From Lytechinus pictus (lineage: Eukaryota), in contig NC_087250.1 in NCBI RefSeq assembly GCF_037042905.1, positions 24,244,001 to 24,308,000 on the forward strand: a stretch of DNA of 64,000 bases, in the 5' to 3' direction. The notes below the pieces were generated by a model, which had not been told where the DNA came from, did not search any database, and saw only the letters and a program-made list of their open reading frames with translations. The position numbers were made by a program, and so were the translations under genes. This document shows positions 21,444-60,999 of the stretch, in pieces. Every line of letters begins with the position of its first letter. The first letter of the stretch is position 1.

Positions 21444-21540
21444 GTAAGCTATCATGACTGCATGTACTATGGGCGGTTTTCTGTTCATTTCAATTTCAGC
21501 GAAATGGCATATGTACCGGTATTAAAGGACAAGTTCACCC

Positions 21541-24355: not shown

Positions 24356-24386
<31 letters not shown>

Positions 24387-27300: not shown

Positions 27301-28146
27301 AATACATTCAATAACATCAGGCATTTTGTTTAGCTCTGTTAGTCTCTGACTTTTAAATTATTAGATACGTAAAACCCGACCCCTTGCCCCTCTTGTATGT
27401 TCTCTGTTTGATAATAGAAGGTAAACCCATCAAATAGAAACAAGAGTGTATTGAAAATCGTTCAATTAGGCCTCAGATAAACCAACAACATAGTAACCAT
27501 AAGTGAGGTGATGAATAAAACACTGAAAGTGATCCACATTCTTATTGAGACTTCTCACAGTACGGTGCACAAGGTATACCAATAACAGGGGCCGCAGAAC
27601 CAGGCTGAAGCCCCCCCCCCCCACTTTTTTTCCAAAACCGTGTACATAAACGCAAAAATGACCATACGATTGTGATTATTTGCATAGTCAGCTCCCCCCC
27701 CCCACTTTTGGCTCAGCCCCCCCCCCCCACTTTGAAAACCGTTCCGCGGCCCCTGGATGACATCAACTGAAAAGTATCTAGAAGAGGGGGGGGGGGGGGT
27801 ACATGTAAACAAGAGTATTAATGTGATTATTGTTAATGGTGTTTGTTACCAGCCTATGCGAGGGTACATCTTTGGAATCTAATTTTAAGTCAAATATATA
27901 AAGATCGGGTATTTGGAGGTTTAAATTCGAGCAACCATCAAAAAGAAAAGACTGTGTAAGGCAGTAATAGTATAACGATATGCGATAAAAAGTGATTAAC
28001 ATAATTATAAACGCAGTAAAAAAGAATTGATTTCAAACCAAGAAGTAATAAGAATGGCAATTTCAAGCAGACACAAAGTACATGTAGAGAGAAAATACAT
28101 TTCAAGACGCACTGACTGAACAATAGGCCCCCGGCAATAGTCCCAC

Positions 28147-28505
28147 CAGAGTACCAATATTAGCGGACAAGTAGCTCACTGACGGTGTTAAGAAACGGGC
28201 GGGGCGTGCCTGCCCCAGCAGGCATAGAGAATAATATAGATAATAAAACTAGCAAGGGTCGCCAACAATTCGATATCCAATTGGTCTCTTATATTGTGAC
28301 GTCATTTGAAGTACTTTTTGAGTGACCGCGCTGCCCGGGATTGACTGCACATCACTAAACTACAGCTGGGAGCCGAGCGAACGGTTATCGTCACGCCCAC
28401 CCTCGGTATAACACACATCTCCACACATCAACGGTACTGACTTGACCAGACAGACCTACATAATTATACTGAATCTAAATTCACAAAGAAGGAAGTAAAA
28501 TCACC
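28147..28505 (+). promoter_or_regulatory. Putative promoter/5' UTR of the myophilin-like gene (downstream copy)
   Basis: Essentially identical to 21040-21398. Confidence 0.55.
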
Positions 28506-28550
28506 ATGGCAAGCCGACCAAGGGGATATGGAATGACTGCTGAATTGGCG
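28506..28550 (+). CDS. Myophilin/transgelin-like gene, coding exon 1 (downstream duplicate)
   Basis: Identical to 21399-21443, followed by GTAAG. Confidence 0.85.
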
Positions 28551-31465
28551 GTAAGCTATCATGACTGCATGTACTATGGGCGGTTTTCTGTTCATTTCAA
28601 TTTCAGCGAAATGGCATATGTACCGGTATTAAAGGACAAGTTCACCCTAGTCTGCAGGCACAGACCCTGATTAGAACTTTGCTCAACAAGTGTGCCTCCA
28701 CGCAAAGACTAGCACATACAAAACTTGCTGTTCCTGAGCGAGAGAGCCTTCAGTACACAAGGCATGAGTAGGCTGCACATTCAGACCCTTAAATCGAGCG
28801 AAGGGTATGCCCAGCAGACTAAGTTCACCCCAGCAAAAAGTTGATTTGAATAAAAAGAGAAAAATCAAAAGAGCATAACACTGAAATTTTCATCAAAATC
28901 GGATGTAAAATAAGAAAGTTATGACATTTTAATTTTTCGCTTAATTTCAAAAAACAGTTACATACACATCCTGGTCGGTATGCAAATGAGGAGACCGATG
29001 ACGTCATCCACTCACTATTTCATTTGTATTTCATTAAATGAAATATATTCTATTTTTTTCTCATTGTCAACAAGTGCATTAACGATTAATTCCTCCCTGA
29101 ACATGTGGAATTAGCATTGTTTACTACTTTCTGGTTCAGTCAAGTTGGTCCTTATTATCAAATTTGTAAGAATTGAAATACTGTATAATTCAAACAATAA
29201 AAAAAATAAGAGAAAAAGTGAAGGGCGTCATCGTCTGTCTCATTTGCATGTCACTGAGTAGTGCATATCACTGTTTTTGTGAAAAATATTGAAACCACGT
29301 GTTCTAAGGTAATGCTAAACTAAAATGAGACCTGCCTGAAATAATGACGTAATCTCGACCTATGATATATATACTTTGGGCCGTATATCTTGGATATTAC
29401 GTCGATTCATATATCCATAAAGAAAATAAATCGAGTTATTGTTATGTATATCATGAGTATATCACATTGAATCAAGAAATTATGCTTTTTAAGGAAGGAC
29501 AAGGAAATGATTTGCTATATATATTTCATTTGTTTATGCCAACGGGTCATAATGAAGTTAAGTTACCGACAAATAAAAACAAATAAATACAAATTAAAAA
29601 CATGTCTTCTTTGAATACAATAGAAACATTCTATTCGACGAAATATGCCATTAAAGCGAAATTTAAACAAATTTCATATTGTGGTCGCGATAGGTCTTTG
29701 ATATTCAAATTTATATTACTTATAATAACTTGCATGAAGTTATGAGGGAAACGGCGAATGAAGGCTTGATTTGGTGCAAATAATTATTGGAGTTTTGTCC
29801 GAGCGAGTAAAAAAAGAATTTTACTAAAAATTTGAAGTCAATGAAATAGAACTAAATCGATTAGATTTGTTTAAAGAAATCAGATGGAAAGTTTGATGTT
29901 ATTGTTTAAATACATTTTTTTAAAGGGGGTGGACTGTCAATTATAATGTGAAATATAAATACATCTCAATGATTTAAAAAAAAATGCCACTTTTGTGGAC
30001 ATATGGATAGAGAGGTAAAGCCCCCCCCCCCCCCTCCGATCCGGTAATCATTGCGCCAATAATCCGTAAATGAGCATGTCCGAAAGGTTTTTTTTTTTTT
30101 TTTTTTTCTTGTTTGGTGTATGTGCATTGACCTCAAGGTCTCTAAGGTCTATGGTATGTGTTTTTTTTATCACCGCTATGGCAGTGCAGTGGTATTATAT
30201 TGATTGATTTTATTCATCTGCCCGTGAAAGCTCAATCACACACATACACACCATCCCCCTTACACACTCACACAATCGCCTGCGGAGCCTCTTCGAGGAT
30301 CCCCACTGCGCGATTGATCTCTGGGGTGTTTAATCTTTGGGTGAATAAGTTAGAATGGGAGAGTGTTCACACCAAATCAATTCTTTATTTGCAATTATTT
30401 GCAATAGCAGATAAACTTCTTCTCACCAAGCAATCATCGGCTGGACAATCCCTGTATAGGTCCATGCTTAAATACTGACGCAAAATGCACATTGCTTTCC
30501 TTTTGGACTTGCATGGTTATTGTTATACCACACCTTACATTCCTTTCTAGCAATTTTCCTTTAGGGTTAATTGTCACACAGTTCGACATTATAACAAGCT
30601 AGTACATGCATGCCGAGGCACTGCATGTGTGACCATGCAAGTACACTGTAAAAACTGTGGTGTTAAAACTGACACCAGTTGGTGCTAATAGAGGACCACA
30701 CCATGAGGTGTTAAAATTACACCCTAGAGATTGACCATAATACCAGACAGTGTATATGTAACAACCAATGCTGCTGTAGTAACACCTATAGGTGTTCAAA
30801 CTAACGCTGTCAATAAGCCAGTTCGTAGTTCCTTTCTGCCCATGATCAAAAGATTATACGCATGATCAGAAGAAGGTCATTTGTACGAAAGTTACATGGT
30901 GGTTTAAAATCTAATGAGATAAGCACCAACCTTGATGTCTTGATTATTCATATATTTTGAATATTGGTATTCATTTACATCCACAAAAAACAACAATGCG
31001 TCCACGAACGACTGGTAATTCACAGTTTGCCAAGTACATTGTGCAACATGCTAAGATATGCATTCAAAGTAGGAATGCAACAAATACCTTCATAAAGTGT
31101 TCATTGGTGTGCTATTCTAGTCACCTGGTCTATTCAATTTCTTCATCCTGCTATGTAAGGCAAGGTTACGTAATATCTTGCTTTGAAATCTGCCTATCAT
31201 AATGAAAGAAATGAAAGGTCATTTGACCAAAATTATCCCTGAAGTAACTACGAACTGGTCTATTACACCGGAGTAAAATGACTGATGTGGTCCTCTATAT
31301 ATGTACACCGGTTAACACCCCAGTTTTTGTTGTGTTAACAATGGCGTAATGATCGCCCCAACATTTTGAGGGTACGGCGTTCAGTCTTGGGAGTAAAAGC
31401 TTGTACTTTTTAAAATGAGATTGTAATATTTTCCCCCCTTTGTCTTGGAGGGAGATTTTATTTTA

Positions 31466-31496
<31 letters not shown>

Positions 31497-32145
31497 TTTT
31501 TATTTTTATTTTTTGGGGGGGTGCATGACTCCTAAGCCTAGTCCTGGGGCAAATATAAAATCTAGGGTAAAAATTGTAGATTTGATAATACATGATATAT
31601 TTGAAAAGTTTGGTTTCAAAAGGGGTTAGATCCACGTTGGACCATTCCGACTAAATTTTCATGATGTACTACCCTGCCATGTGAACATTAAATTGGGTGT
31701 TAAAAGAAATCTACCTGGCCTCAAGCAAACTAAAACGGATCTAATCACTTTTGAATAAAAAAAGTGATTTTCCTTTACCAATTCACGTTTTAATTGGAAT
31801 TTCACATTTTCTTTGATATCATCAGAGCGACTAAAATCTATGGTCCGTATTCTGAAGTCGGGTTTAACTTAAACTCAGGTTTAAAGTTGTGGTTTAAGTA
31901 TGGATAGCCAAATGGTACCTAAATCACTAACAGTAGAGATATCATATTTCAGCTCATTTGGCTCTCAAATCATTCATAATTGTCTAGAAACTATAAAAAG
32001 ATGGTTGTCTTCACCATCGATGAATCAGGAAAGAGCACAGTAAACATAAGAAACATACAACTTAAAATAAAATTTTGACACTTTTGGCTTCCCATTATTT
32101 TAGCACAGAGTTAGACCATGGTCTAAGTTAAACCTGACTTCAGAG

Positions 32146-33941
32146 GGCTTATTATATTCACTCGCGTTCGTAATCACTCGCGTCGGGTTGGTAATCACAC
32201 GCGTTTTTTATTTTTGGCGATTTTTTTTTTTTCGGTGCGATTTTTTTTCTAACGGTGTCTTCAGTGGGACAAACGTACTGGAAAAATAAAATGAAATTGA
32301 AATTCGAGTTTCGTTTTATTTTAAGCTGGTAAGTGCCTTAAATAAAACGTTCTCGACCACTGTTTAAGATAACAAGCAAATTTTGACTACTGTTTTAACA
32401 TAATCACATTCCACATCTTAAATCTTAGAGCCATAGGCGGCGGAAGCGGGGGGGGGGGGGCTCCCCCTAAAAAAAGAGAGAGGGGGGAGAAAAGAAGGGA
32501 AAGAGGGAGAAAAGAGAAAGAAAAAAAAGACAGACAGAAAAAAAGAAGCAAGGAAAAAAGGAGAAAGAAAGGAGAAAAGGAATAAAGAAGAAAAAGGAGG
32601 AAAGGCTACTCTCGATTTAGCTTTGCCTTTGGAGGATTTTCCTGAAGTCTGTGGTATTCTTTATAAAGCATAGCGAGGTGCTACAATTTCATAATATCAC
32701 TATTTATTTGCTTCTCCCTTTCTTTGTGAATTATTCTACACTAACGTAAAAATCAGGGAGGAAAAAAGTGCTGAAGAAGAAAAGCAAGAAGGAAGGAGGA
32801 GGAGAAGTAGAAGAAGAAAAAAGAAGATGGAGGACATAAGGGGGTAAAAATGAAACTAAAAAGATAAAATTGAGGGGAGGATGTAGAAGAAGAGAAAGAG
32901 AAGATAAAATAAGGGGAAGACTGAGAAGAGAAAAGGAAGAAGTGAGAAGGGAGATGAACAATAAGGAGAAAGGGAAGAAATTGAGAAGTAGAAGAACAGG
33001 GAGAAGAATAAGATGACATAATAATGGGAATAAAAAGAAGACTGAGAAGAAAGAGAAGTAGGAGGGGGAGTAAAGTGCACTCTGGTTATAAAGAAGTCCG
33101 AGGGACCAACAAAATTGTTCCTTTATACAAATAATCGTGTGTGTGTGTGATATAAGTTTTTTTTTATATAATGATGGTGCACTGAACAAAATTTAAAAAT
33201 GGTAAAATGGATTTTCATTAATCTTGCAGGACGTTGCAGGGTGAAAAATATGAAAAAATTTGGGGGTTATCAAGGACAAGAAATCTACACTGTATTGTAA
33301 TTTGTATTGTAATGTATTTACAAGTGTATATTTGTTGTTGATCACAATGTTTTATTTATGTTTATGTATCCAGCCTACTGTGACTCCCTGAAGCCATGTC
33401 TTCTGTTTTCCAATCCATTATTTCTGACTCAATCTGAGTTACCTCCAGTGCTTGGAGTTGTTTAAGGGGCCTGGATAAATGACGTAGCCGACAACTTCTG
33501 TTTTCAGGAAGGCACCGGGACGGTACGGTACCTTGGCTTTGATCGTCGCGCGAATTTTTACCGTGAGAGCGGAGAGCGCGCACAGCCACAGGGGCGGATC
33601 TTGACCAAAAGCTTCGGTCTTTGTGTCTATTAATTATTATGTTGGTTGTTCCGCTGAACTCCGTTGGCTCCACTCACCAAATACAGAGAAATTCACAAAA
33701 AAAAATAAAAATGTTTGAAAAAAACTCCTCGAAACAGACTGCTGCCAGCTGTCTGGGGCGGATCAAGCTTGTTTTCTATTCTTTAATTGCCGGCTTAAAA
33801 CGAAACTCAAATTTCCCTGCATGTCTGTCCCATTGAAGACACCGTTAAAAAAAAATCGCATCGAAATAAAAAAAAATCGCCAAAAATTCAAAACGCGAGT
33901 GATTACGAACCAGAACGCGACGCGAGTGATTATAAACTGCC
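32146..33941. mobile_element. Non-autonomous DNA transposon with ~130-bp imperfect TIRs and 8-bp TSD (possibly Merlin-like); truncated copy at 25036-26372
   Basis: GGC...GCC ends, TSD CTTCAGAG (32138-32145, 33942-33949), inserted in the end of another MITE. Confidence 0.7.
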
Positions 33942-34805: not shown

Positions 34806-36869
34806 AGGAAAAATAACACAAAAGGCAAGTATTGCAATTGCTTGCCTATTTAAAGGTCCCAAGACATGCTGCACAATACCGTCTGAGTCTTTTTTTTTTC
34901 ACCAAATGATTACCTGGTGGGTTTAAGGACGCTTCACTGTTAAAATGAAATCCATGTAATTTCCACCAAATTTTGCACAGAATTACTTTAGCACCTATAT
35001 ATTCCAAATATGCAACAACAAAAAGAATGCCATGGGTTCATGTGCTTTGAAGTTCACCTATTTGAAAGGTGTCGAGAAATACGGAATTAATACAATTTTG
35101 CATTTTTAGACCCCATGAGATCACAACGTTTAAATGAGTTTAAACCTCTATTACTCGGTCAAAAGCCATCCTAATTTCACAATATTTTACATTATAGTTC
35201 AGGATTATATACTTAAAATAAAGAATCAAGACATATTGCTATTCGTTAGCTTTTTAAAGAGAAGCAGCACCTTCATTTTCGAAAATGAGATGTGAAATGC
35301 GACAAAAAGATATATGCAAGATTCAAAATTCATATAACAAATTTAAACAGTTCAATTAATTATGCACTTTATTCAAAATCATCCCGTTTTCACAAAATTT
35401 TGCATGGTTGAAGAGAAAAGTACACGAAAGAGGTGTGAACATAAAAAATTGGGGGTTCATCTGCTTGTTTTCAAACTATCAGCAGTTTTGTTGGAGCTAT
35501 TGCGTCTTTAAAAACACAAAAAAACTCGTCAAGGCGTGTATTTACTAAAGAGACATTTTACATCACTATCCCATTTTATCTAATTCGAGGTCATATTTGT
35601 CATACTTCGCAGCACTGCTCAGTAAAGTAGACTTATTGTGAAGAGGTACAGGCGTTTCAAAAAGCTGAGGCATTGATTATTTTCATCTAATAGCTTCGTA
35701 AAATAACACAATACCATCAAGACTTGCAGTTGAATTGCAGCTCTCGCCTCAGCCTCCTCCCCCACTTTCAAAACCGTTCCGTGGCCCCTGAAATATGCAT
35801 CATAATGGCGCGGTTCCAGTTTTCACCACGGGGGGGGGGGGGGGGGGGGGTGGGGGGGGGGGGGCAAAAGAGACTTTCATTGTCATTTCCCCAGAGCAGC
35901 CGCTCAAGCTGATTTATGTTGGTTTCTTTGAAGGGGGTAGTTCTTACAGTTACTTCTTACAGCTTTATTCTTATAAAGTAAAAAAAAAAAAAGGTACACG
36001 CAGCGCGAGCTCATTTATGATATTTAGTCCATAAAACAGACATTTTATAGAGGATTTTTTAAACATTAATTTGTAAAGCGAACACAATAAATATAGCTCT
36101 ATGTCCGAGCTGAAATATGCTTTGTATATTATCTTAAATAATATGTATATTTTGAAGCTTCATTTTAGCCTATTGAGCAAGAAATGTATTTCGTCGAACG
36201 GGCAAGTCGAGCGTAAAGCGCGAGCAAAAATTTTATATAGTAACATGAAAGATTTTTTGCATTTTCTAAGTTTTATTCACACGTTTTCCTCTTATTATCC
36301 CTTTTTTTTTCTCCCCCCCTCCCCTTCCCTTTTTGTTAGTTTTTCTTTCTTTCCCTCTTTTTCCTTTATTAAGGACCGCCGATGGGGGGGGGGGGGGGGG
36401 GGGCTGCGACCACTTCGGGCCCCAGGATTCGCCTATTATAATTTCAATATTTTTTTTTTCATTTTCTTGCATTTGTCTGGAGTATGCTAAGCACCGCCTC
36501 CTTAAACTTCATAAGATCTATCGGTCTTCATACAATACCACCTCAGAACGTTTAAAAAAAAAATTTGACAAAGCAGTAACGATGACCGTTTGAATGGTGT
36601 GGTATTGTATGAAGATTTGTGTTGCCAATTTTAGCAATGGTACATAATAATGGCAACTGGTAAGTTGCATGACATTGTGAATCGTTGTGCTTATTTCGGC
36701 CTCCCAGGCGTATATCAGTTTGAGGCAACAGACATATAGCATTCTTTTCATAAATTTCTACAAACAGCCCTTTAAATTCCCCTTTCTTACAGGTACTTTT
36801 ATCAAAAATTCAGGTCACACCTTGCGCTGGCTTTGTTTATCAAACGTATGCATCATATTCATGATTATA

Positions 36870-39800
36870 CAGGGTGTTTCCAAAAAAAAAGGTAACCAAA
36901 CTTCAAAGGTCAGCTAAATAAAAAATAATTATTCTTGTAATTGCTATTCTACATAATAAAGTAACTCATCAACCTTAATTTGACACCTTCTTTGTGTCAT
37001 ATCTATCACGGTCACAAAGTTATGGTCTATCGAAGGCAAAAGTCACAAAACCCACTTTTTCCAAGTTTTGGGTTTTACTGTACGTGCACGAAACCCACCT
37101 TGTAAGGTCTTTGTTTTATGAGGCGCCGAATGTACCAATATTATATAGAACAATTATTTGTTATATAATCATTATTTATTAAATAATAACTATTATTTAT
37201 ATATAATTTACATTTTATTTGTAAATAACTACTATTATATAAAATATCATTTCTAATTATTTATATATAATTCCAAGTAATACTTCATTATTTGTAAATA
37301 ATAATAGTTCGACATTCCATTATTTATAAATAATGATTATTTGTTTTTCATTATTTATAAATAATGATTATTTGTTTTTCATTATTTATAAATAATGATT
37401 ATTTGTTTTTCATTATTTACAAATAATGATTATTTGTTTTTCATTATTTATAAATAATGATTATTTGTTTTTCATTTTTTATAAATAATGATTATTTGTT
37501 TTTCATTATTTACAAATAATGATTATTTGTTTTTCATTATTTATAAATAATGATTATTTGTTTTTCATTATTCATAAATAATGATTATTTGTTTTTCATT
37601 ATTTATAAATAATGATTATTTGTTTTTCATTATTTATAAATAATGATTATTTGTTTTTATATTATTTATAAATAATGACACTACATACTTCATTATTTAT
37701 AAATAATGACACTACATACTTCATTATCTATAAACAATTGCAATTCGTTTTTCCGTTATTTATAAATAAGTTTTCTATTATTTATAGATAATAATTATTT
37801 ATTATCAATGCCAGTGCACATTTCTTTATTTATAAATAATTTGTTGAGTTTTCCATTATTTATAAATAATGATTATTTGTTAAATAATGAAAACGTCTAC
37901 TTCATTATTTATAAATAATTTTTTCGAGTGCACCATTATTCTCATTATTTATAAATAATCATTATTTAATGTTCGAGTTTTCCATTACTTATAAATAAAG
38001 ATTATTTGTTAAATAATGAAATATCTACTTCATTATTTATAAATAATAATTTAGTTTCAATATCCCATTATTTATAAATAATCATTATTTATAAACAATT
38101 TTTACAGTTTGCCATTATATACAAATAATCATTATTTATATACAAATAACCATTATTTATTAAATAATGCCATTATTTATTAAATAATGCCATTATTTAT
38201 TAAATAATGGAAAACTCGCTATAACATGCAAATGTGGGACCGCCCATGATATGAATATTCATGATGCGATTTCCTTTTTCGTGATTTTTCTTCACAAATT
38301 TTTGTCCATTTCCTCTTCATAATGACATTTCTTGAAGCAATTTTCTAGGGATATGGTCTGATTGTAATATTCTTCATTTTCTATATAACTTCGTCTTCGT
38401 AGAAATATCAAAAAGTGTAATTGTATACGATTTTTCCAACAGTTCACAATCCCCATAGGCGCGCGTGTATCGTAGGGACAACCGGTGAATCGACGGAGTG
38501 CTCTTCATCGAAATACTACGTTGGTTGGAATTTAGCCCGAATCCTCGATGGAAGTCGATCAAGTGCATATGAGCTGAGAGAGTGAAATATTGTACTTGTA
38601 CAGGCCCTTCTACTTTTTATAAATATTTCTTGTTGCTTTTTTTGTTAAGTTAATTTTTCCTGGTGTAGAGATAAGTTTCAGTTCTAATAATGCACTTCAA
38701 ATACATTTTGGAGTGTCTGTTTGAGGCGTTTGGGGCGATTTCACCCTGGCCCCAAAATGCTCGCAACGACAATACGGGGGCATGATGACCCCTAATTTTT
38801 TAAAAACTTATTTTTCTATTGAAAATTATCACAAAATTAACCAAAAGTGTGCACGAAAGCCTTCGTATTTCACTTTTAAAACTCCCAAAATTGCCCAAAT
38901 GACAAGCTTGGTCGCTTCGCTGTGTCGCTTTCAACCTGAGAACGTTTACGCGTCTGCTTCCCCCCCCCCCCTCCTCCGAAAGAAATTCTGTATACGGCCA
39001 TGCTCTAAAAGAGCCTGGCACATTGATTTATGTATACTTTCATTTTCATTATTTTTATCTCATTATCAACATGGCCTTACGCAGAATTTTTTCCAAGGGG
39101 GCCGGGGCCGGAGCATGACGCGCGTAAACTTTCTCAAAAAAATCTTGAAAGCGAGACAGCCACGGGACCAAGCCCAAATGACAAGCTTGGTCGCTTCGCT
39201 GTCTCGCTTTCAACTTGAGAACGTTTACGCGCGTCTGCCCCCACCCCCCGAAAGAAATTCTGTGAACGGCCATGCTCAAAAGAGCATATGGCACATTGAT
39301 TTATATGTACTTTTCATTTTTATTATTTTTTTCACATTATCATCATGGCCTTACACAGAATTTTTACCGGGGAGGGGGGGGGGGGGGAGCAGCTAGGACG
39401 CGCGTAAAGTTTCTCAAAAAAATCTTGAAAGCGAGACAGCGACGCGACCAAGCTCAAATGACAAGCTTGGTCGCTTCGCTTTTTCAAGATTTTTATGAGA
39501 AAGTTTACGCGCGTCCTGCTCCCCCCACCCCCCCCCCCCGGAAAAAAATTCTGCGTAAGGCCATGATGATAATGAGATAAAAATAATGAAAATGAAGTAT
39601 ACATTAATCAATGTGCCAGGCTCTTTAGAGCATGGCCGTATACAGACTTTCTTTCGGAGGAGGGGGGGGGGGGGAAGCAGACGCGTAAACTTTCTCAAGT
39701 TGAAAGCGACACAGCGAAGCGACCAAGCTTGTCATTTGGGCACTTTTTGGAGTTTTAAAAGTGAAATACGAAGGCTTTCGTGCACACTTTTGGTGAATTT

Positions 39801-42091
39801 TGTGATAATTTTCAATAGAAAAATAAGTTTTTTAAAAATTAGGGGTCATCATGCCCCCGTATTGTCGTTGCGAGCATTTTGGGGCCAGGGTGAAATCGCC
39901 CCAAACGCCTCAAACAGACACTCCAAAATGTATTTGAAGTGCATTATTAGAACTGAAACTTATCTCTACACCAGGAAAAATTAACTTAACAAAAAAAGCA
40001 ACAAGAAATATTTATAAAAAGTAGAAGGGCCTGTACAAGTACACTGATATTTCACTCTCTCAGCTCATATGCACTTGATCGACTTCCATCGAGGATTCGG
40101 GCTAAATTCCGCCCGCCACTTCCGGGGACCAACCAACGTAGTATTTCGATGAAGAGCACTCCGTCGATTCACCGGTTGTCCCTACGATACACGCGCGCCT
40201 ATGGGGATTGTGAACTGTAGGAAAAATCGTATACAATTACACTTTTTGATATTTCTACGAAGACGAAGTTATATAGAAAATGAAGAATATTACAATCAGA
40301 CCATATCCCTAGAAAATTGCTTCAAGAAATGTCATTATGAAGAGGAAATGGACAAAAATTTGTGAAGAAAAATCACGAAAAAGGAAATCGCATCATGAAT
40401 ATTCATATCATGGGCGGTCCCACATTTGCATGTTATAGCGAGTTTTCCATTATTTAATAAATAATGGCATTATTTAATAAATAATGGTTATTTGTATATA
40501 AATAATGATTATTTGTATATAATGGCAAACTGTAAAAATTGTTTATAAATAATGATCATTTATAAATAATGGGATATTGAAACTAAATTATAATTTATAA
40601 ATAATGAAGTAGATATTTCGTTATTTAACAAATAATCTTTATTTATAAATAATGGAAAACTCGAACATTAAATAATGATTATTTATAAATAAATGAGAAT
40701 AATGGTGCACTCGAAAAAATTATTTATAAATAATGAAGTAGACGTTTTCATTATTTAACAAATAATCATTATTTATAAATAATGGAAAACTCAACAAATT
40801 ATTTATAAATAAATAAATGTGCACTGGCATTGATAATAAATAATTATTATTTTTGAATAATAGAAAACTAAATAAATAAACTAATAAATAACGGAAAAAC
40901 GAATTGCAATTATTTATAAATAATGAAGTATGTAGTGTCATTATTTATAAATAATGAAGTAGGTAGTGTCATTATTTATAAATAATATAAAAACAAATCA
41001 TTATTTATAAATAATGAAAAACAAATAATCATTATTTATAAATAATGAAAAACAAATAATCATTATTTATAAATAATGAAAAACAAATAATCATTATTTG
41101 TAAATAATGAAAAACAAATAATCATTATTTATAAATAATGAAAAACAAATAATCATTATTTATAAATAATGAAAAACAAATAATCATTATTTGTAAATAA
41201 TGAAAAACAAATAATCATTATTTATAAATAATGAAAAACAAATAATCATTATTTATAAATAATGAAAAACAAATAATCATTATTTATAAATAATGGAATG
41301 TCGAACTATTATTATTTACAAATAATGAAGTATTACTTGGAATTATATATAAATAATTAGAAATGATATTTTATATAATAGTAGTTATTTACAAATAAAA
41401 TGTAAATTATATATAAATAATAGTTATTATTTAATAAATAATGATTATATAACAAATAATTGTTCTATATAATATTGGTACATTCGGCGCCTCATATGTT
41501 TCATCAGATTTCCCTTTCGATTTTCAGTGAAATACAATCCCCTTTGTTAACATTTTTGTGTGAGTTTCTGGCATTTACATATGAACTGTCTATCTTTAAT
41601 CTCTGATGAACACGTCGTTCACCATTAACTTTTGCACAGATACTCTTGAACATTTTGACAGTACCTCATAGTCGATGCTGCATATCTAGCATTGCTTTTC
41701 TATAAAACCATTACAGGATTGTGACTAAAAACATGTATTTTATGCTAAACAAGTGCCTGCAAATCAGGATGTGCTGGACCAAAATTAAAGCTAGACACCA
41801 GTTTTGTAACATTTATTCGCAAAATGTTTTAAGGGTAACATTTCACTGAAATTTGCTGTGAAAATCTCTGTTGAAACCAAAACCAAAACCCCAAACTTGG
41901 AAAAAGTGGGTTTTGTACCTTTTGCCTTCGATGGACCATAACTTTATGACTCGTGACAATAATTTGTGACCCAAATAAGGTGTCAGATGAGTTACTCAAA
42001 TATATAGAATAGAAATCCCAAGAATAAATCATGCATTCTTGATATACCTGACTTCTGAATTTCGGTTACCTTTTAAAAAAAATACACCCTG
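36870..42091. mobile_element. Tc1/mariner-like MITE interrupted by the foldback element
   Basis: TA-CAGGGTGT...ACACCCTG-TA with ~200-bp imperfect inverted ends. Confidence 0.7.
37119..41494. mobile_element. 4.4-kb foldback element with ~2-kb inverted arms
   Basis: 37119-~39150 is the reverse complement of ~39481-41494; TA on both sides; 31-bp tandem arrays in both arms. Confidence 0.9.
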
Positions 42092-42300
42092 TATGTTAGT
42101 GCTCGGTTTATTGATAAAATCAGCTTGCGCTATGCGCTTGCATATTTTTTTGTGAAACTGTAACATATTCTACCAATATTAATTCTCACAAATAGTCCGT
42201 AAAATGTCCCGTTTCAGGTCATCAATTAAGAAAAGTCATCTCTCGCTTTGCGCTGGTATTATTTATGTAGTTCTAAGGAATCTTATAAGACAGTACTTAA

Positions 42301-42826
42301 AGGGGAAAGAAACCTTTGGATCACGTAGGCTTGTGACGGAACAGAAAAATCAAAGAATAAGAACAAAGAAAGTTTGAGAAAAATCAGACAAATAATGAGA
42401 AACTTATGAGCATTTGAATATTGCAATCACTAATGCTATGGAGATCCTCCCATTGTCAATGCAACAAGGATGTGTGATGTCACATGTGGACAACTTTCCC
42501 TTTGATGGACTATAAAATACCCCCCAAATGTCTATTTTTGCTTTTTCTTATGGTGGTACAAACTCTTTATCCATAATGTGTTCTTTAATAATCTGTACTA
42601 CATGCCCTCATATAGAAAGAACACATGATCAACTGATATATGTGTGACATCACACATCTTTGTTGCATTGCCAATTTGAGGATCTCCATAGCATTAGTGA
42701 TCGCTATATTCAAATGCTCATAACTTTCGCATTATTTGTCCGATTTTTCTCAAACTTTCGTTGACCTGTTTCTTTGATTTTTCTGTTTTCACACAAGCTA
42801 TCTTGTTCAAAAGGTTTCATTCTCCT
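42301..42826. mobile_element. Kolobok-like MITE related to 67-650
   Basis: TTAA flanks, right TIR GTTTCATTCTCCT, shared subterminal sequence. Confidence 0.75.
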
Positions 42827-43072
42827 TTAAACTTGAATCTCTATAGGACTCGCTCGAGCAGCCGTTCGAAGAAAAATGTGACTAGTTTTTCAGTCCTTTC
42901 TCTTATTGGACAAATCTGGTTCCGCCCCTGACTACATTTATGTTGTACAAAAAGATTTGAGATATCCATTTCATCTCAAAGTCAAGATTACCAGTCGTGT
43001 CTTAATGCAACATGCGAGCAGATGTGTGAAATGACCCCTTCATTATACTTTTAAATGTTTTTTTAAATGCAG

Positions 43073-43139: not shown

Positions 43140-43534
43140 GTAAGTACGTTATTTTGTTACTAATACTTGAGTATTCGAGTTATCCCAAGTGTCTAATCGG
43201 GATCCGCCGATTATTCGAACAGTGTAAATTTTGCTAATCGATTACCGATCGGCGGCAAGCCATCTGAACCATTCGATCAATCGGTGTTTACTCCCAGGCC
43301 TATTATTTACAAATAATGTGCACAGTATAATAATAATTTTGTGGTTAATAGCAATTTCGTGACATCAAATTCATTTGGTGTCTTTGCTGTATTCTAAATG
43401 AAGATAAAATTGTTCTCAGAATACCAATTCGGAGAGATTTTAAAGGTATTTTATCTCACTGATTTTAACGGAGATAAACTATTTTATTTTACCTGAGATA
43501 AAATGGATATCAGAATACCATAGGGTTAGGGTTA

Positions 43535-43712
43535 GGCGTTGTGGCGTGCGCCTGTCATCCAAGCTGTGGGGAAGTTACAAATTGATGCAGAGGTTCGAAG
43601 TTCGAGCCCTGGTCACATCTTTCAGATGGTTACGTTAAAGGTCGGTCCCAGACGTAAATAATCATATCTGATTGATACACGTCTGACAAAACTCAAATAC
43701 ACACACACACAC
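43535..43712 (+). mobile_element. SINE with a 7SL/Alu-domain-like head and (CA)n tail
   Basis: GGCGTTGTGGCGTGCGCCTGTCATCCAAGCT resembles the 7SL 5' end; B-box-like GTTCGAGCCC; (CA)n tail. Confidence 0.6.
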
Positions 43713-43938
43713 CACCCCAGGTGCTAAAATGGTTGAGTTTGCATTGTTACATCACACCTTTCATGACCAGAAGGAAATAAACGCTTTTTTGTTGAAGCAA
43801 GGTGACAGGAACATGCCGTCTGTTAGTGTAAAAGGAAAACATTGAATTGTATTCACTTACCTGTTTGGAGTTTTACTAAAATGAGTTTTACTAAAATCTG
43901 AAGAAGAAAAAACTTTGCGAGGCCTTAAGTCACCGGGG

Positions 43939-45343
43939 GTACTTCGATTTGGGTTAAACGGGGATGTGCGGCTGGAGGCTCAAAACCCATACCTTTATTA
44001 TTTAAAAGTCATTTTGGCAAAAAGGGTACCCATAGTTAGGGAGTTTCATCTAAAAAGTGGCGATTCATCCAACAGATATCTTTCATTTTTCCTTTAAAAA
44101 ACGCGTTTTGTTTTCGCTTTCCCCGTACGTATTGTGTTTTTGACTCGCAGTAACCTCGCCTTTTAGAAAGTCTTAATTTAGCCTAAGTTGCGATCATCCG
44201 TGTGATTCTTTGTTCAGAAGTATGTTCCTGCAAACGCTGTTCTGGTTCCTGGTCGTGTTAATTATCACATTATAAAGTTTAAAGTGCATAAAATGAGTTT
44301 TGTTTCTATTTAAAGACAATTTGTTGCATTTGAACCAAGTAGACAGTTTACATAATTCATCATTTAAAGTAGATACTACAATTTCAAGTTTTGGGTGAGA
44401 ATAAAAAATATTGGTATCATCTGCAAATAGGATAAAAGATAATAAGGGGGAAGTTTTCGATATATCATTGACGTATAATAGGAAAATTAGCGGCCCCAAA
44501 ATTGACCCCTGCGGCACACCACATTCAACAGTTTTAAAGGTTGAATCTATTTCATTAAATGTAACATATTGTTGTCTATATTTGATAAATAATATTGTTT
44601 GTTTGTTTGTTTTATTTCCGTATATAAAACAACAGATACAAAGTACTTCGATTTGGGTTGAACGGGGATGTGCGGCTGGAGGCTCAAAACCCATACCTTT
44701 ATTATTTAAAAGTCATTTTGGCAAAAAGGGTACCCATAGTTAGGGAGTTTCATCTAAAAAGTGGCGATTCATCCAACAGATATCTTTCAATTTCCATTAA
44801 AAAACGCGTTTTGTTTTCGCTTTCCCCGTACGTGTTGTGTTTTTGACTCGCAGTAACCTCGCCTTTTAGAAAGTCTTAATTTAGCCTAAGTTGCGATCAT
44901 CCGTGTGATTCTTTGTTCAGAAGTATGTTCCTGCAAACGCTGTTCTGGTTCCTGGTCGTGTTAATTATCACATTATAAAGTTTAAAGTGCATAAAATGAG
45001 TTTTGTTTCTATTTAAAGACAATTTGTTGCATTTGAACCAAGTAGACAGTTTGCATAATTCATCATTTAAAGTAGATACTACAATTTCAAGTTTTGGGTG
45101 AGAATAAAAAATATTGGTATCATCTGCAAATAGGATAAAAGATAATAAGGGGGAAGTTTTCGATATATCATTGACGTATAATAGGAAAATTAGCAGCCCC
45201 AAAATTGACCCCTGCGGCACACCACATTCAACAGTTTTAAAGGTTGAATCTATTTCATTAAATGTAACATATTGTTGTCTATTTGATAAATAATCTTGTT
45301 TGTTTGTTTTATTTCCGTATATAAAACAACAGATACAAAGTAC
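43939..45343. repeat. ~700-bp tandem duplication containing a minus-strand CR1/L2-type RT fragment
   Basis: Copies 43939-44646 and 44643-45343 with GTAC microhomology; GVPQGSILGPLIFLLYVND...FADDT in each (one P>L). Confidence 0.9.
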
Positions 45344-45369
45344 ATAAAATACATATAACATGAGATGAT

Positions 45370-46696
45370 GAGGTCAATGTTAAGATACAATAATAAAAGG
45401 TGAGAAATAAAATAAATTATACGGCTGATAGTCCATATTCAGCTGCAATAATGCATTGCTGCTGGTCTTCCATGGAGCCAGTTTACTTGAAAAAGGGATA
45501 TGATTACCATAAAGTAAAGGAAGTTGACCATCAGATATAGAAGTGAAATCATTAAAAACAAAGAAAAATCATATAACCTACACCTACCCCCCTCCCCCTC
45601 CCCCGGTGCAAATCAGTGATTTAACTTTATTTAGTACAGATATATTTCAAAAATGTATTTTAAAGGAATTGAAAGTGGTGACATTACGCACGCACATAGG
45701 AATTCTGTTTAATTCAGAGGCAGCTCGGTGAGAGAAAGATCTTTTTTTACTATTTGTTCTAGGTCTGGGTAAACATACATTATTTGAATTTCTAAGAGGG
45801 TAAGGAGTAGCTTTTGTATGAAACACATTTTTAATATATTCAGTGGACATGTTGTTACTAATCTTATACATGAATAATATTAAGTGAGTATACTGTCTCT
45901 TTTGAATAGTGTCCCAACCCAGAATAGAATGAATTTGAGAGGTTGAAGTGTGTGAACAGGTGGTCAATTTTCAAAATTATTCTTCCAGCTCTATTTTGAA
46001 TTTTTTGAAGTTGGTCAAGTAAAGATTTGTTTGCAGATTGATAGATAATGTCACCATAATCAAAATGAGGTAAAATTATTGAGTTATATATTAACTTTAA
46101 TTCTTTAGCCGTGCAATATAACCATTCATTCTCGCCAGTTTTTTTACATAAATAATTTACGCGATAGTCCCACTTCATGTTTTCATCCACAAAGACACCT
46201 AGATACTTAAAGCTATTCACTTGAGTCAGTAAATGACAGTCAATTTTTAGTTGTAAATGCTGTGATCTTTTAAGCATTTTAGGTGTTCCAATCTACATGC
46301 TTATAGTTTTATCATAGTTTATTTTCAAATTATTCCTGTTCATACAGGCAGATAGACTTTCCAGTTCCGTATTAAGGACGAGTTCGATAACTCTAATATC
46401 GTTATGTGAGAAATATACTGCGACGTCAGCATGAAGGTGTACGGTGCACTCTTTAAATACAGAAAATTATATCATCAATAAATGAAAAGAACAATAAGGG
46501 TCCAAGGAGAGATCCCTGGGGTACTCCCTTAAATGACACTTTCTTCTGATAAAATTCCATTAATGGATGTACGTATTCTTCTATTAGTCAAATAACTTTT
46601 GAACCAATGCAATTCATCACCAGATATACCAGTATTTTTAAGTTTGGATAAGAGAATTGCATGATCGACCAGGTCGAAAGCCTTTTGAAGGTATAT
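45370..46696 (-). pseudogene. Degenerate CR1/L2-group LINE 3' portion, continuing at ~48970-49035
   Basis: LQKAFDLVDHAILLSKL, FKYLGV, YNSIILPHFDYGD, LPRPRTN motifs; split by the L2 insertion. Confidence 0.8.
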
Positions 46697-48802
46697 CATG
46701 ATTACGATATATTGCACAAACCTCGTCCGACCAGTTCTGGTGGAGGCATCTGCATCATCCACCGTTCAACGGTCAAAGTGAGTCTTCAAGACTACAGCAA
46801 CTTTCAGTCATTCGAGTTGATGGACTTCACCATTCGTACTAATGGTGCATCGGTGTTTCGTGTCTTTGCCATCTACAGACCACCTCCATCATCAAAGAAC
46901 AAACTAAGTTTTTCTTTGTTCTTGAAGGAATTTTCGTCACTTATGGAATCTGTAGCAATAGTTGACAACATTCCACTTTTAGTTGGTGACTTCAACATAC
47001 ATGTAGATGACCGCAACGATAAAGATGCTACCACTTTCCTCAATACATTGGATGAGGCTGGTTTTCAGCAGCATGTTATGTATTCCACACATAGAGCGGG
47101 GCATACGCTAGATCTGCTGATAACCAGAAGGGTCGACGAAGTGGTCCCTGCGATTGATTCCATTAGGGGTCTTCCTTCTGATCATGACTGTATATGGTGC
47201 ACTATTAACTTGGAACGCCCGCCCGCCACCAAGAAGCTTGTCACTTGCAGGAAGTTTCGTGATATCAATATGGACTTATTTAAGTCAGACATTCTGACAT
47301 CTTCTCTTACATCTTCGCTCTCATCGTGTTCTTCTGAAGCAGTTCTACAGTACAATTGTGTGCTGAAGGAACTGTTGGATAAGCACGCACAAATTCAATC
47401 ATCTGTTGTGTCCTTAAGACCACGGGCTCCTTGGTACAACGACTCCATTCGACAGGCTAAGCGAGTTAAACGCCGTGCAGAGAGAAAGATGATGAAATCA
47501 GGCCTAGAGATCCACAGGCAGATATACCAACAACTCTGCAAGACCTACAATGACGCACTTACAGAGTCAAAATCACAGTTTCTGTCAGCTGAAGTTGTAG
47601 AGTGTGACACAAAACAACTTTTCAAGTTCGTCCAAAAGCTGTCTTCCCCCGAGCGAGCTTCTGTGCTCCCCGATCGAGATTCAGATGAGTCACTAGCACA
47701 TGACTTTGGTGAGTTCTTCGAGAGGAAAATTCATAAAATTATTGAAGGATTTGACCAAGTTCCATGTCAATTAGGGGAAATTCCTGGATGTGATAGTGAG
47801 TTTTCCTCGTTTGAGCCGGTATCTGAAAACCAGGTTAGAAAAGTGATCGGTGCCATGACTTCCAAATATTGCCAGCTGGATCCTCTTCCAACATGGTTGG
47901 TTAAAGGGTGTTTGGGTGAATTGGTACCAGTTATCACATCCATCGTAAACGGCTCGCTGTCTTCTGGGAGTGTTCCTGACAGCTTTAAGGTCGCTCAAGT
48001 AGTTCCCCTGCTGAAGAAACGTGGTTTGGATCCTAATGATCTTCGGAACTATAGACCTGTGTCCAACCAAATGTTTCTTGCAAAAGTTCTTGAAAGAGTT
48101 GCGAGCTTCCAGTTGAAAGCGTATCTAGAAAATAACTGCTTGTTTCCCATAATGCAGTCGGCCTATCGTTCGTTCCACTCAGCGGAAACAGCGCTCGTGA
48201 AAGTAATGAACGATCTCTTACTGGCTGTTGACAAGGGTAATGAGGCGATATTGGTTCTACTAGATTACAGTGCTGCCTTTGATACCATTGACCATGGAAA
48301 TTTGATCTCCATCCTTGAATGTAGATATGGTATCAATGGTGTTGCTCAACAGTGGCTGGTTTCCTACTTAGAAAATCGGAGACAGAGGGTCAAAGTTAAC
48401 AACGCTATCTCAAAGACTTTTCCTCTCTCACAGGGAATCCCTCAGGGCTCCGTCATTGGTCCTTTGGCGTTTGCATTGTACACCGGTCCTCTATCGCAGG
48501 TCATTAGCGCACATGAAGGAATCAAGCACAAAACCCAACATGGTCAAGCCCCTTCTTGTATTACCGACCTTCTCTCATCCAGGATCCCGACAACCTCCAT
48601 TCGACTCCGATCTTCCACACATCTTCATCTGCAACTGGCCCAAGGACCCAGAGCTCGGACAAGGTATGGGAACCGAGCATTTAGTGTTGTTGCTCCAAAG
48701 CTTTGGAATGACCTTCCCATAGAATTGAGGGATGCCCCGTCATTCGAATCATTCAAAGCTTCTCTCAAAACTTACCTTTACAATTCTTCCTTTAAGTTTT
48801 AA
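46661..48802 (+). CDS. L2-clade LINE ORF2 remnant: partial AP endonuclease plus RT with an in-frame internal deletion
   Basis: IYRPP, VGDFNIH, TH.AGHTLDL, SDHD, NYRPVS, QSAYR.FHSAETAL, LDYSAAFDTID, PQGSVIGP; YADD is missing. Confidence 0.85.
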   Translation: MIDQVESLLKVYHDYDILHKPRPTSSGGGICIIHRSTVKVSLQDYSNFQSFELMDFTIRTNGASVFRVFAIYRPPPSSKNKLSFSLFLKEFSSLMESVAIVDNIPLLVGDFNIHVDDRNDKDATTFLNTLDEAGFQQHVMYSTHRAGHTLDLLITRRVDEVVPAIDSIRGLPSDHDCIWCTINLERPPATKKLVTCRKFRDINMDLFKSDILTSSLTSSLSSCSSEAVLQYNCVLKELLDKHAQIQSSVVSLRPRAPWYNDSIRQAKRVKRRAERKMMKSGLEIHRQIYQQLCKTYNDALTESKSQFLSAEVVECDTKQLFKFVQKLSSPERASVLPDRDSDESLAHDFGEFFERKIHKIIEGFDQVPCQLGEIPGCDSEFSSFEPVSENQVRKVIGAMTSKYCQLDPLPTWLVKGCLGELVPVITSIVNGSLSSGSVPDSFKVAQVVPLLKKRGLDPNDLRNYRPVSNQMFLAKVLERVASFQLKAYLENNCLFPIMQSAYRSFHSAETALVKVMNDLLLAVDKGNEAILVLLDYSAAFDTIDHGNLISILECRYGINGVAQQWLVSYLENRRQRVKVNNAISKTFPLSQGIPQGSVIGPLAFALYTGPLSQVISAHEGIKHKTQHGQAPSCITDLLSSRIPTTSIRLRSSTHLHLQLAQGPRARTRYGNRAFSVVAPKLWNDLPIELRDAPSFESFKASLKTYLYNSSFKF

Positions 48803-48970
48803 GTTAATTTTGTCAATATCAAACGATTATTCCTAATTTATTTCTTGTTTGTTTATGTGTGTTATACTGTTCAATGTTATTGATGTATGCTATTTAATCG
48901 TTTTGTAAAGCGCTTAGAAACACCATGTATTAAGCGCTATATAAATACAATGTATTATTATTATTATTAT
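46696..48970 (+). mobile_element. 5'-truncated L2 LINE with typical 3' tail
   Basis: Tail tgtaaagcgcttaga...aagcgctatataaata (TAT)n; inserted within the IFIYLQKAFD motif of an older LINE. Confidence 0.85.
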
Positions 48971-57059: not shown

Positions 57060-58965
57060 ACAAATGGTCAAAAACAGATCGTTACACTCCACATTCCTCA
57101 CTTGAACCTAGGAAGTGATTTGATAGGTCCATATGAGAGCTTGTGCATCACAGACTGTAGATGGTTGGACCATAGGGTGACCCTTTGTGAGCAGAGCCAT
57201 CAAGGGATTCAGTCGAATGAAGGAAGCTACATCTTGTTTTGATGTTTTTTTTGGCAGGTTCATAGTTAAAGAGTGGATGAAGAGGGTGATCTTCTTGCTT
57301 GTTTTTTTCCACCTCTGCTGACACCTATCTTCTGATGTGTGGATGGGCAATACCACACAGTAGGTAGAGATCATCTGCTCTTGTTTTGTCGCAGCCAGTA
57401 ATTGCTCTGCAAGCAGCATTCAGGTCTGCATCAATCTTTGCAGCATGTGATGACCTAAAACGGATGGGGACTGCATACTCAGCAGTCTAGTAGCATAGAG
57501 CAAGAGCTGTCGCACGGATGGTTTTGGCATCTGTTCCCATTTTATGTTGGCAAGCTTCTTCAGGATGCTGTTCCTTGCTCCAACTTTAACCTTTGTCTTG
57601 GAAACATGGTTTTTGTAGGTAAGGGAACTGTCTAGGGTGATGTTAGGTAGATTAGCTTACTGGTGTGTTCCAACCATTTTCTATACCATCTGAACCTTAG
57701 TTATTGGTCTGCATCTCTGTTTTTTTAGGTGAAAAGCACCGAGTTGGTTTTTTTCTGGATTTGCACAGAAATGATTTGCAGCGTAGTAATGAGTCAGGCC
57801 TACCAGAGCATTGCTGAGTGCTTTTTCATCTCTTCAAAGGAATGTTTCTGTGAAGCAATGCAAATGTCATCAGCGTACAGGTAGCTCTCATTATTTGGTG
57901 GATTTGTCATTTGTGTAGATGCTAAAGAGTGGGACGATGATGCTTCCTTGTGGGAGACCTTTTGTGTGTCAGCCATCTGCTACTGGAACCACTGAGATTC
58001 ACAAAAACTGCTGATTTGAGAGCATGCTCTGAATCATCTGTGTCAGCTTAAGCCTTCCTTTGTCATCTCAAAGACTTTCCTTGTGAGTATTTGATGATTG
58101 TGTCATAAGTTGCAATGAGGTCAACAAAGGCTGCTCCAGTTATCAACCCTTTCTCGAAGCCACCATCTCCAATGTACTGTGCCAGATTCAGCAGTTGACT
58201 AGTACTGGACTTTCCTGGCCTAAATCCTGTCTGTTCTGGAAAGAGGAGCTCATCCACCAAGGGAGCAATGTGGTTGAGTAGGAGCCTTTCAAAGATCTTG
58301 TATGTGTGACAAAGCAGAGATATGGGCTGGTAGCTCTTTGCGTTGGCTGTTTTTTTTGCCTGGCTTGAGTAAGGCATCTACCCTTGATTTCCTCCATAAG
58401 TTTGGCATTGTGCTTTCACTCAGACAGTAGTTTAGTATGTCAAGCAGCCATTGGAGTGAAACAGGTCCAAGATGTTTCATCTGCTTACAGATCGAGGACA
58501 TCATCCAATCGAGCTACCTTGCTGATCTTCATTGCTTTGACAGCATTGCACAAGTCGTTCATGCTGAAAGGTCTTGTGAACTCAGATGACTCTTGGCAGG
58601 CTGTCCGCACACTTTTAGGTTGGATCTTCGCGGGTGATTATGAGGGTTACCTTGGCTGTTCACTAGAAGCTGGTTGGCCACTTGGCCGGCGGTAACTTGG
58701 GACCTAGATTGGGACTTTGTAGAGTCATTCCCAAGGATCCGAATCTGGTGTTTCTGCCGGCCCTTAGTATAGCTTGTACGGCATTCTTGTGGAATATACT
58801 TCCTTGATGATTTCTTCAGCAGTTCTAAAAATGTGTCGTAATGAGTAGGGAGTGCAGGGAGGTTCTGAAGATATGTATCCAGACCTATGTCAAACTGCTC
58901 ACAGTTTACTTTCTTCAGGTTGAAAGTCTGCAGAAGGGAACTTTGCGAGGAGTGATGTTTACCAC
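57060..58965 (-). pseudogene. Degenerate Ingi/Vingi-like LINE RT
   Basis: SYQPISLLCHTYKIFERL, EQTGFRPGKSSTSQLLNL, GLITGAAFVDL, YADD-like motif, many frameshifts. Confidence 0.75.
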
Positions 58966-60244
58966 GGCATCAGGCTATTTGCAACATTGATATAATTAAA
59001 TTAATTAACCACTACCAAGCAGCATCAACAAGAATATCAATGTTAAACAACCTACATGTACGTGTATACTTTGGTGGAAATGAAAGAAAAATCGGACTCT
59101 ACATATTTTTATTAAATCTTTTTCTGGTGTAAAATGAGCCGTTACCACGACAACAGGTAATTTGCAACATTGATATTTATTAATAATATCAAGCGTTGCC
59201 AAGGGAACATCAATTTTTATCCTTCTAATGAATTCATGCAGAATAATTACGTAATTTTGGTTTTGGTCATGTAGATTAGTTCGTTTTTACTGTACATCCC
59301 ACCATTACCTTTTTTAGCATGTTATTTTTTACCAAATAAGTTGGTATTTGGTTGCCATGGCAATGGTCTGAGATGGTACTTACATATTTACCAACAAGCA
59401 TATTTATTTTTAGCAACCTAAACTTAGCGGAAATGAACGAAAAAAATGTGACTTTATGTTTTTATCAAAATTTGTTCTTTTCTGAGAAAAATAAGGTGTT
59501 ACCATGGCAACAGGCCATTTGCAATATTGATTTTTATCTTTAAATTCAAGCATTCTCAAGGCAACATCAATTCTTATCATTCTAATAAACTCATGCATAA
59601 CACTTACTGTAATTTTTGTTCTAAATGAGTGGGAAAAACCCATCGCATGTAGATTACATGTAGGTCACTTTTATTGTATTTCTCTCCATTGTCTTTTTTT
59701 ACCATGTTATTTCTTCTTTTTTTACCAAATAAGGTATTATTTGGTTGCCATGGCAATGGAATGAGAGTGTATTTATACATTTAGCAAAAATCACTCCTAT
59801 GTTTAACACCCTAAACGAAGGGAAAATGAAACAAAAAACAGATTCTACAACTTTAAATCAAATTTTTTACTTTTCTGGAGGAAAAATGAGCCGTTACCAT
59901 GGCAACGGGCCAATTGGAACCAATGTGATGATCTTAAATATTTTTGAATTTCATTTGTATTTAATTGGAACCTTAAAATCAATCTGTTGGCTAATTTATA
60001 TCATGTTTATCTACCATTTACAGGGGAATACATGCTATTTTTGAGAAATTAATACGTTGCCATGGCAACGGTCGAAGACGGCATTTATAAATTTGGCAAC
60101 AAGCAGATTCGTATTCAGCACCCTAAAAATAGGGGGATAAGCACAAAAAATCAGATTCTACAGAAAATTTTTGGAATTCTTACTACTTGCCGCCTACTAA
60201 TAGGCCCGACTTTAACCTGACATAATGAAACGCTGAGCTTCCCC

Positions 60245-60748: not shown

Positions 60749-60999
60749 CCTACCCGGACGTTCCACACACGTGTGAGCACTGCAGTTCGTGGGCGGAAGT
60801 GGTGACTTTTGTCATTCATGCTAATCCTAGCGGGAATGATAACTGACAGCATTTCCGGTCATCGCTGGTTTTGCGCGCCCAATTTTGTGTGTTGTCACCC
60901 ACGTCCGCATAAGTGGATGTCATGTGACTTTTCCAACCAATCAGAGACATGTACCCTGCGAGATACCGTGCATACGGCACTTCGACAGAGTATATAAGG

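Follow-up and report, generated by a model that had tools for sequence, protein, structure and literature searches.

SINEs that stem from 7SL RNA arose independently on few occasions, namely, in supraprimates, in the shrew mole, and in hagfish, and in the excerpted published accounts all of them keep both ends of the 7SL sequence. This retention has been taken to mean that the complete Alu domain is required. In HeLa cells, nucleotides 1 to 46 of 7SL bind SRP9/14 and give about 86% of Alu retrotransposition, and the 46-nt Alu-domain RNAs used carry no Pol III promoter that could serve additional rounds (PMC11760393, excerpt). The SINEs described from sea urchins are tRNA-headed families of the Meta, CORE, or Deu type (PMC3747384, PMC4824008, PMC4758252, and PMC5804259, excerpts). 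No 7SL-headed SINE from an echinoderm or any other invertebrate was found in the literature searched, in which subscription papers were thinly covered.

Parts of the element

The window, i.e., the whole 64-kb stretch of Lytechinus pictus DNA that was analyzed, contains a SINE copy of 178 nt at positions 43535 to 43712 of the plus strand. An earlier note on this DNA had described an element of about 180 bp at this place, composed of a 7SL-like head, a B-box-like motif, a Deu-like segment, and a (CA)n tail, and this layout was confirmed, with all four parts present. They are arranged as follows.

43535 to 43576, plus strand: head resembling the 5′ Alu domain of 7SL RNA (helix 3 and its UGGC loop, a GUAA turn, helix 4, and a closing helix of 3 bp), from comparison with Rfam Metazoa_SRP and the hagfish head
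43535 to 43544, plus strand: A-box-like decamer, matching 8 of 10 letters in each comparison with the A boxes printed in PMC7245038, the hagfish one and that of human 7SL (excerpt; counted by eye)
43577 to 43599, plus strand: linker with no Rfam SRP or tRNA match, whose last 7 nt form a unit that recurs in the B box
43599 to 43612, plus strand: B box and the next 3 nt, apparently of the tRNA-SINE type, from likeness to bivalve BivaV-SINE3 consensus sequences
43612 to 43650, plus strand: putative 5′ stub (about 40 nt) of a Deu/Nin domain, from likeness to AmnSINE1_HS and BivaMD-SINE1
43649 to 43685, plus strand: 3′ stem-loop, a candidate LINE-recognition element, from fold stability
43686 to 43712, plus strand: A-rich spacer and (AC)7 tail, read from the letters; loose ends of family members lie behind 43703 to 43712, and tail length is variable

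Searches of the 64-kb window with blastn and nhmmer did not find a second copy of the SINE.

The family in reads and contigs

Of 23 sequence runs listed, 4 were mapped onto positions 43200 to 44000 (801 nt) at 85% likeness. Two of these (X21 and X23) are raw stranded RNA from organism A, of which about 6% each was used, and the other two are contigs from organism A (X1) and from organism B (X3). The 801-nt stretch, which also contains two smaller repeats, was matched by 2506 of 8.71 M (X21) and 1840 of 8.25 M (X23) RNA records and by 212 of 0.48 M (X1) and 3956 of 6.09 M (X3) contigs. All four mapped runs displayed a block of high depth from about 43535 to 43712, with a depth of approximately zero from 43713 onward. 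At both borders of this block, the flanks differed among family members (the agreement of loose ends was 0.37 to 0.57 in most border rows and 0.84 in one X21 row). Head and body had similar depths and were joined within single contigs (record 3 of X1 and record 11 of X3). The sharp-ended depth block, the mixed flanks, and the contigs that join head and body together indicate an interspersed many-copy family. The family is a short (<1 kb), interspersed, nontandem, many-copy repeat that is common to two species labels. Mapping depth and the number of distinct contigs both point to many copies, depth itself not being a copy number. The earlier note had named a single-copy sequence as an outcome that would speak against its proposal, and the many copies in reads and contigs of two species labels dispose of that objection.

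Pattern scans of metagenome, viral, and genome contig collections returned no loci; one of the metagenome-contig patterns held a letter that many copies lack. Searches with blastn against plasmids and phages gave matches at chance level only (E, 0.6 to 7).

In 11 of the 12 joints listed for the organism B contigs (X3), the tail of one SINE was followed by the head of another copy after 2 to 32 letters; these may be head-to-tail dimers or may have arisen by insertion beside the element's own tail. A single contig of organism B joined position 43398 to 43717, omitting both the SINE and the repeat adjoining its 5′ end, with 21 letters on the short side, and possibly represents an empty site.

The 7SL-like head

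The earlier note had proposed that the element be compared with the metazoan SRP model. When the whole element was compared with 4227 Rfam families, Metazoa_SRP gave the lowest E value, in a weak local match to model positions 3 to 42 (13.4 bits; E, 0.11). The head, cut out post hoc, matched model positions 1 to 47 with 19.4 bits (E, 5.2e-4), and adding 37 nt to it raised the score by about 1 bit (model positions 48 to 83), the resemblance being limited to about positions 1 to 47 of the model. The gathering score of Metazoa_SRP is 70 bits, and the 13 to 20 bits of the element lie far below it. At gathering score, the whole 64-kb window gave no Rfam match, and an Rfam search of the 2.2 kb surrounding the element returned no SRP match. 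Taken alone, the Rfam support is therefore weak, given the post hoc cuts, the distance from the gathering score, and the loss of the match on 2.2 kb.

At the level of sequence, the comparison with hagfish is stronger. Positions 5 to 30 of the SINE1-1_EBu consensus (PMC7245038 supplement, excerpt) and positions 43535 to 43560 are identical at 24 of 26 positions, for which the binomial chance is 1e-7 to 6e-6 for the window. This 26-nt start of the hagfish head had a single match in the window, located at the SINE and carrying 2 mismatches, and matched in 0 of 100 shuffles. These results support a 7SL derivation of the head in which 7SL contributed the 5′ ~46 nt only, as judged against the Rfam model and the hagfish head.

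Structural comparisons were carried out on the window copy and on the family. In the window copy, 6 of 8 helix-3 positions and 3 of 3 helix-4 positions are paired. The corresponding structural pattern, whose thresholds were fitted to the window copy, was also found in 4 of 100 shuffled windows. Neither the head alone (z, −0.06 and +0.58) nor the whole element (z, −0.65) folded better than shuffles. In the Alu domain, the GUAA turn is a contact site of SRP9/14, and the two loops pair with each other. The turn is broken in the window copy and is restored by the A that the family carries at 43556 (274 of 275 and 104 of 106 reads). In numerous reads, the helix-4 loop is two letters longer, as seen from loose ends before 43565 to 43568 in 90, 82, 127, and 60 reads. 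The consensus of the loose ends before 43535 ends in ACTG (5 X1 contigs and 46 X3 contigs), and family copies appear to start 4 nt upstream with these letters, which the window copy lacks. With ACTG added, the 3-bp closing helix comprises three Watson-Crick pairs, with two double changes relative to the Rfam consensus (by eye). Every family-majority difference listed for the element shifts it toward the model, i.e., toward 7SL or Deu letters, and the family reads are nearer to 7SL than the window copy is.

Linker, B box, and Deu-like segment

Behind the head, no SRP match was obtained for positions 43566 to 43625 or 43579 to 43700 with Rfam at E values of up to 10; thus, the 3′ 7SL segment of the described SINE1 elements is absent. 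A 7-nt deletion at 43593, which removes one of two 7-nt units (43593 to 43599), was present in 150 of 1382 X21 reads and 436 of 1048 X23 reads and was rare in the contigs of organism B. It defines a subfamily with one unit missing at the B box.

Positions 43600 to 43612 are identical, by eye, to the B-box region of the tRNA-headed bivalve BivaV-SINE3 consensus sequences (PMC4824008 supplement, excerpt), and the family carries a G at 43599 (1146 of 1407 and 514 of 1031 reads). This suggests that the B box represents the 3′ half of a tRNA-SINE head and is not derived from 7SL; since 13 nt of a common motif are involved, the likeness serves as a pointer only.

The segment that follows (43616 to 43639) agrees with the Deu start of AmnSINE1_HS at 18 of 24 positions (chance, 0.002 to 0.03 within the element). 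With the family-majority G at 43617, 43624, and 43631 (93 to 99% of reads), the agreement is 21 of 24. The element also resembles the Deu start of BivaMD-SINE1 (PMC4824008 supplement, excerpt). Only the first ~40 of ~130 to 140 nt match, the other ~100 nt of the domain being absent. As judged from these alignments, the likeness of the window copy alone is modest and becomes stronger with the family-majority letters. The chimera of a 7SL head and a Deu core that the earlier note had proposed stands with respect to the 7SL-like head, the Deu-like body, and the many copies, and is narrowed in extent to the 5′ ~46 nt of 7SL and the first ~40 nt of Deu.

3′ hairpin and insertion marks

The hairpin at 43649 to 43685 has a folding energy of −13 kcal/mol (z, −4.0), and 1 of 200 shuffles was equally stable; the stretch was picked after the fold had been seen. 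No target site duplication (TSD) was found at the window copy, where the longest shared word comprised 8 nt and lay away from the borders. The absence of TSDs is usual for CR1/L2 insertions. Comparison with three LINE pieces revealed no LINE 3′ end resembling the SINE tail in the window.

Transcription

Over positions 43551 to 43712, first mates on the minus strand outnumbered those on the plus strand by 16:1 (X21) and 12.6:1 (X23); the same ratios for the neighboring repeat were 5:1 and 0.44:1. If the usual stranded protocol applies, the family RNA is mostly sense. Read ends were piled at 43540 and 43541, with 30 and 51 molecules beside depths of 138 and 144 in X21 and 17 beside a depth of 52 in X23. 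Counted from the inferred start of the family, these ends fall about 10 nt inward, which fits RNAs beginning at the head. One 3′ flank was common to 680 X21 reads, so that a few loci may dominate, and the sense bias could stem from a few mRNAs with embedded copies. The copy at 43535 to 43712 is a decayed member of the family. The RNA depth of its 3′ flank was 0 to 1.3, so that the locus looks silent, and the copy is probably silent.

Neighboring sequence

A second many-copy repeat (43400 to 43534) adjoins the 5′ end of the SINE and contains a pair of 25-nt direct repeats (88%) as well as a GGGTTAGGGTTAG end. Its depth was about 1/10 of that of the SINE in both species labels, and its RNA strand bias was inconsistent. 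This repeat may have removed the first four bases of the SINE. A third repeat (43200 to 43307) was detected at lower depth in all four runs.

LINE pieces abound in the window, whose DNA is AT-rich. LINE fragments and a MITE-like element are listed below; the LINE clades were assigned by our own reading and not by a classifier.

46652 to 48970, plus strand: LINE fragment
44194 to 46292, minus strand: LINE fragment
58063 to 58969, minus strand: LINE fragment
60928 to 63263, plus strand: LINE fragment
62 to 656, 1994 to 2587, and 42297 to 42830: MITE-like element with long terminal inverted repeats, in three copies

The LINE fragments include a 716-amino-acid endonuclease-reverse transcriptase frame of the CR1/L2 type with a (TAT)n tail, located 3 kb downstream of the SINE; the others are broken reverse transcriptase pieces and an element with reverse transcriptase and RNase H of the I/Nimb type. 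Among the 120 matches listed for the 716-amino-acid frame, three carry species names, two being from Lytechinus pictus and one from Amphiura filiformis (echinoderms). Tandem duplications within 19231 to 33490 (7.1 kb; 97.6% identity) and 43939 to 45343 (708 bp; 98% identity) are recent and are either real or assembly artifacts. The stretch from 36867 to 42094 is foldback-like, with inverted 210-bp ends, two inverted AT-rich 31-bp satellite arrays, and a 280-bp tandem repeat between the arrays.

Proposed origin and alternative explanations

As a whole, the data are best explained, and we hold this with good confidence, by a nonautonomous sea urchin SINE family that arose when an older Deu-type SINE exchanged the 5′ half of its tRNA head for the 5′ ~46 nt of 7SL and that would propagate by a route involving Pol III, SRP9/14, and a CR1/L2-type LINE. 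A template switch, as likewise proposed for the hagfish 7SL-derived SINE (PMC7245038, excerpt), would have brought in 7SL nucleotides 1 to 46 in this exchange; head swaps are known from the 5S rRNA heads of AmnSINE1/SINE3 (PMC4758252, excerpt). The product would possess a hybrid Pol III promoter consisting of the 7SL A box and the tRNA-type B box, and the borrowed B box would supply the promoter for further rounds. In the RNA, the head is predicted to fold into the 5′ Alu domain, to bind SRP9/14, and to dock the transcript onto ribosomes. A CR1/L2-type LINE would contribute the reverse transcriptase that recognizes the 3′ hairpin and the (AC)n tail, and it would copy the SINE RNA by target-primed reverse transcription.

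The role assigned to SRP9/14 could be superfluous if the 7SL-derived head acted merely as a Pol III A box and the LINE recognized the 3′ hairpin alone, as for ordinary SINEs with CR1/L2 partners. The element lacks the 3′ strand of a full Alu domain, which all SINE1 elements described in the excerpts of PMC7245038 and PMC13023118 keep; a young family would retain 7SL letters even without selection; and the 3′ hairpin is the strongest fold of the element. However, the 7SL likeness stops at the end of the 5′ Alu domain, ~35 nt past the A box, and that domain is enough for SRP9/14 binding in human cells (PMC11760393, excerpt), which makes a mere A box possible but rather doubtful in our view. About as doubtful is that the family, while real, already has an entry in Repbase or Dfam that lists its head as a tRNA, for example, as one of the SINE2-n_SP families of Strongylocentrotus purpuratus or as an automatic RepeatModeler family. 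Repbase does hold several sea urchin SINE2 families, including a DeuSINE (SINE2-3_SP), all known here by description, and RepeatModeler would hardly miss a family this abundant in two species. On the other hand, the excerpts of PMC10886601 (2024) and PMC13023118 (2026) give mammals and hagfish as the only animals from which 7SL-derived SINEs are known, five short motifs of the element occurred in none of the main texts of the literature searched, and SINE2-1/2_SP and SURF1 are described in partial sources as MetaSINEs and a CORE-SINE, respectively.

That the head is instead a degenerate tRNA head which came to resemble 7SL by convergence is very unlikely. The tRNA-SINE type of the B box, the weak Rfam support for SRP, and the tRNA heads of all sea urchin SINEs named in the excerpts of the four papers cited above are in line with such an origin, but they have to be set against the 24 of 26 identities to a 7SL-derived head and against the searches of the element with Rfam and ARAGORN, neither of which returned a tRNA match. 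Rfam gave no 5S match in the element, either. The better alignment to a tRNA that the earlier note had considered as a counterargument was thus not observed. We regard as extremely unlikely a one-time fusion of a 7SL retropseudogene fragment with a truncated SINE, a human Alu contamination, or a transfer of the hagfish element. The head is indeed close to the 7SL-derived heads of vertebrates; a one-off event is contradicted by the similar depth of head and body and by their junction in contigs with unlike flanks under two species labels, contamination by a body that is not Alu, and transfer by the 3′ 7SL part and RTE tail of SINE1-1_EBu, which are absent here.

If the preferred origin from 7SL and a Deu-type SINE holds, a wider reading may be offered tentatively: the family could be a naturally occurring “minimal Alu” and, among 7SL-derived SINEs, the first from outside the vertebrates, combining a 46-nt SRP9/14-binding domain with a tRNA B box and lacking poly(A). 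In that case, it would show that ribosome docking through SRP9/14 aids a SINE that depends on a stringent CR1/L2-type LINE, even without the 3′ Alu strand. A successful echinoderm family carrying nucleotides 1 to 46 alone would then add one more independent origin and be the first from any invertebrate; it would also put to a natural test the 2024 finding that the 46-nt 5′ domain suffices. The SRP9/14-ribosome route would also become testable outside the L1/poly(A) system, and urchin embryos are easy to inject.

Comparison with known SINEs

Like the sea urchin element, hagfish SINE1-1_EBu (Ebu1-1; PMC7245038, excerpt) has a 7SL-derived head grafted onto an older tRNA SINE, a non-L1 3′ end, and a microsatellite tail. 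In contrast, it keeps 7SL 1 to 96 and a 3′ 7SL segment, with a full Alu domain and the 7SL B box, and it has a bipartite RTE tail, ~17-bp TSDs, and a length of 282 bp, whereas the sea urchin element has ~46 nt of 7SL, a tRNA-type B box, a Deu stub, and ~180 bp, with no TSD at the window copy. Alu, B1, Tu, and Urop (PMC13023118 and PMC11760393, excerpts) share the 5′ Alu domain with its A box, a B box ~65 to 70 nt in, and a Pol III-type architecture; they differ by a central deletion of 7SL that leaves both ends, a poly(A) end, and an L1 partner. The same sources allow a dual 7SL/tRNA origin for the leftmost unit of tree shrew Tu, which comes closest to being a precedent for a hybrid head. SA46 (PMC11760393, excerpt), a minimal Alu domain of 46 nt obtained by engineering, has the same 7SL extent, nucleotides 1 to 46, but is artificial and was built as a Pol II construct with poly(A).

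With the DeuSINEs, or Nin-DC elements (AmnSINE1, EbuSINE1/2, BivaMD-SINE1, and SINE2-3_SP), the element appears to share the first ~40 nt of Deu, and CR1/L2-type partners are usual for this group. According to the partial sources available for them, their heads are tRNA or 5S, with no 7SL head described, and the Deu domain spans ~130 to 140 nt in the hagfish and AmnSINE1 alignments. The element has neither of these heads, its tRNA-SINE likeness being confined to the B-box region. By the SINEBase rule, an element should be 60% or more identical to tRNA, 5S, or 7SL across no fewer than 60 nt or be demonstrably transcribed by Pol III, and the 7SL likeness of ~46 nt is shorter than this length. 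The traits shared with SINE1 are the 7SL-derived 5′ head and the 5′ Alu-domain pairing with the GUAA turn, which is intact in the family reads; the 3′ 7SL segment that follows the central deletion is the trait not shared. The family may be new as a relative of SINE1 unless it is catalogued under another class. By its sequence traits, the element is a real SINE that is SINE1-like at its head, while it departs from the described SINE1 elements in the 3′ 7SL segment and from the 60-nt rule of SINEBase.
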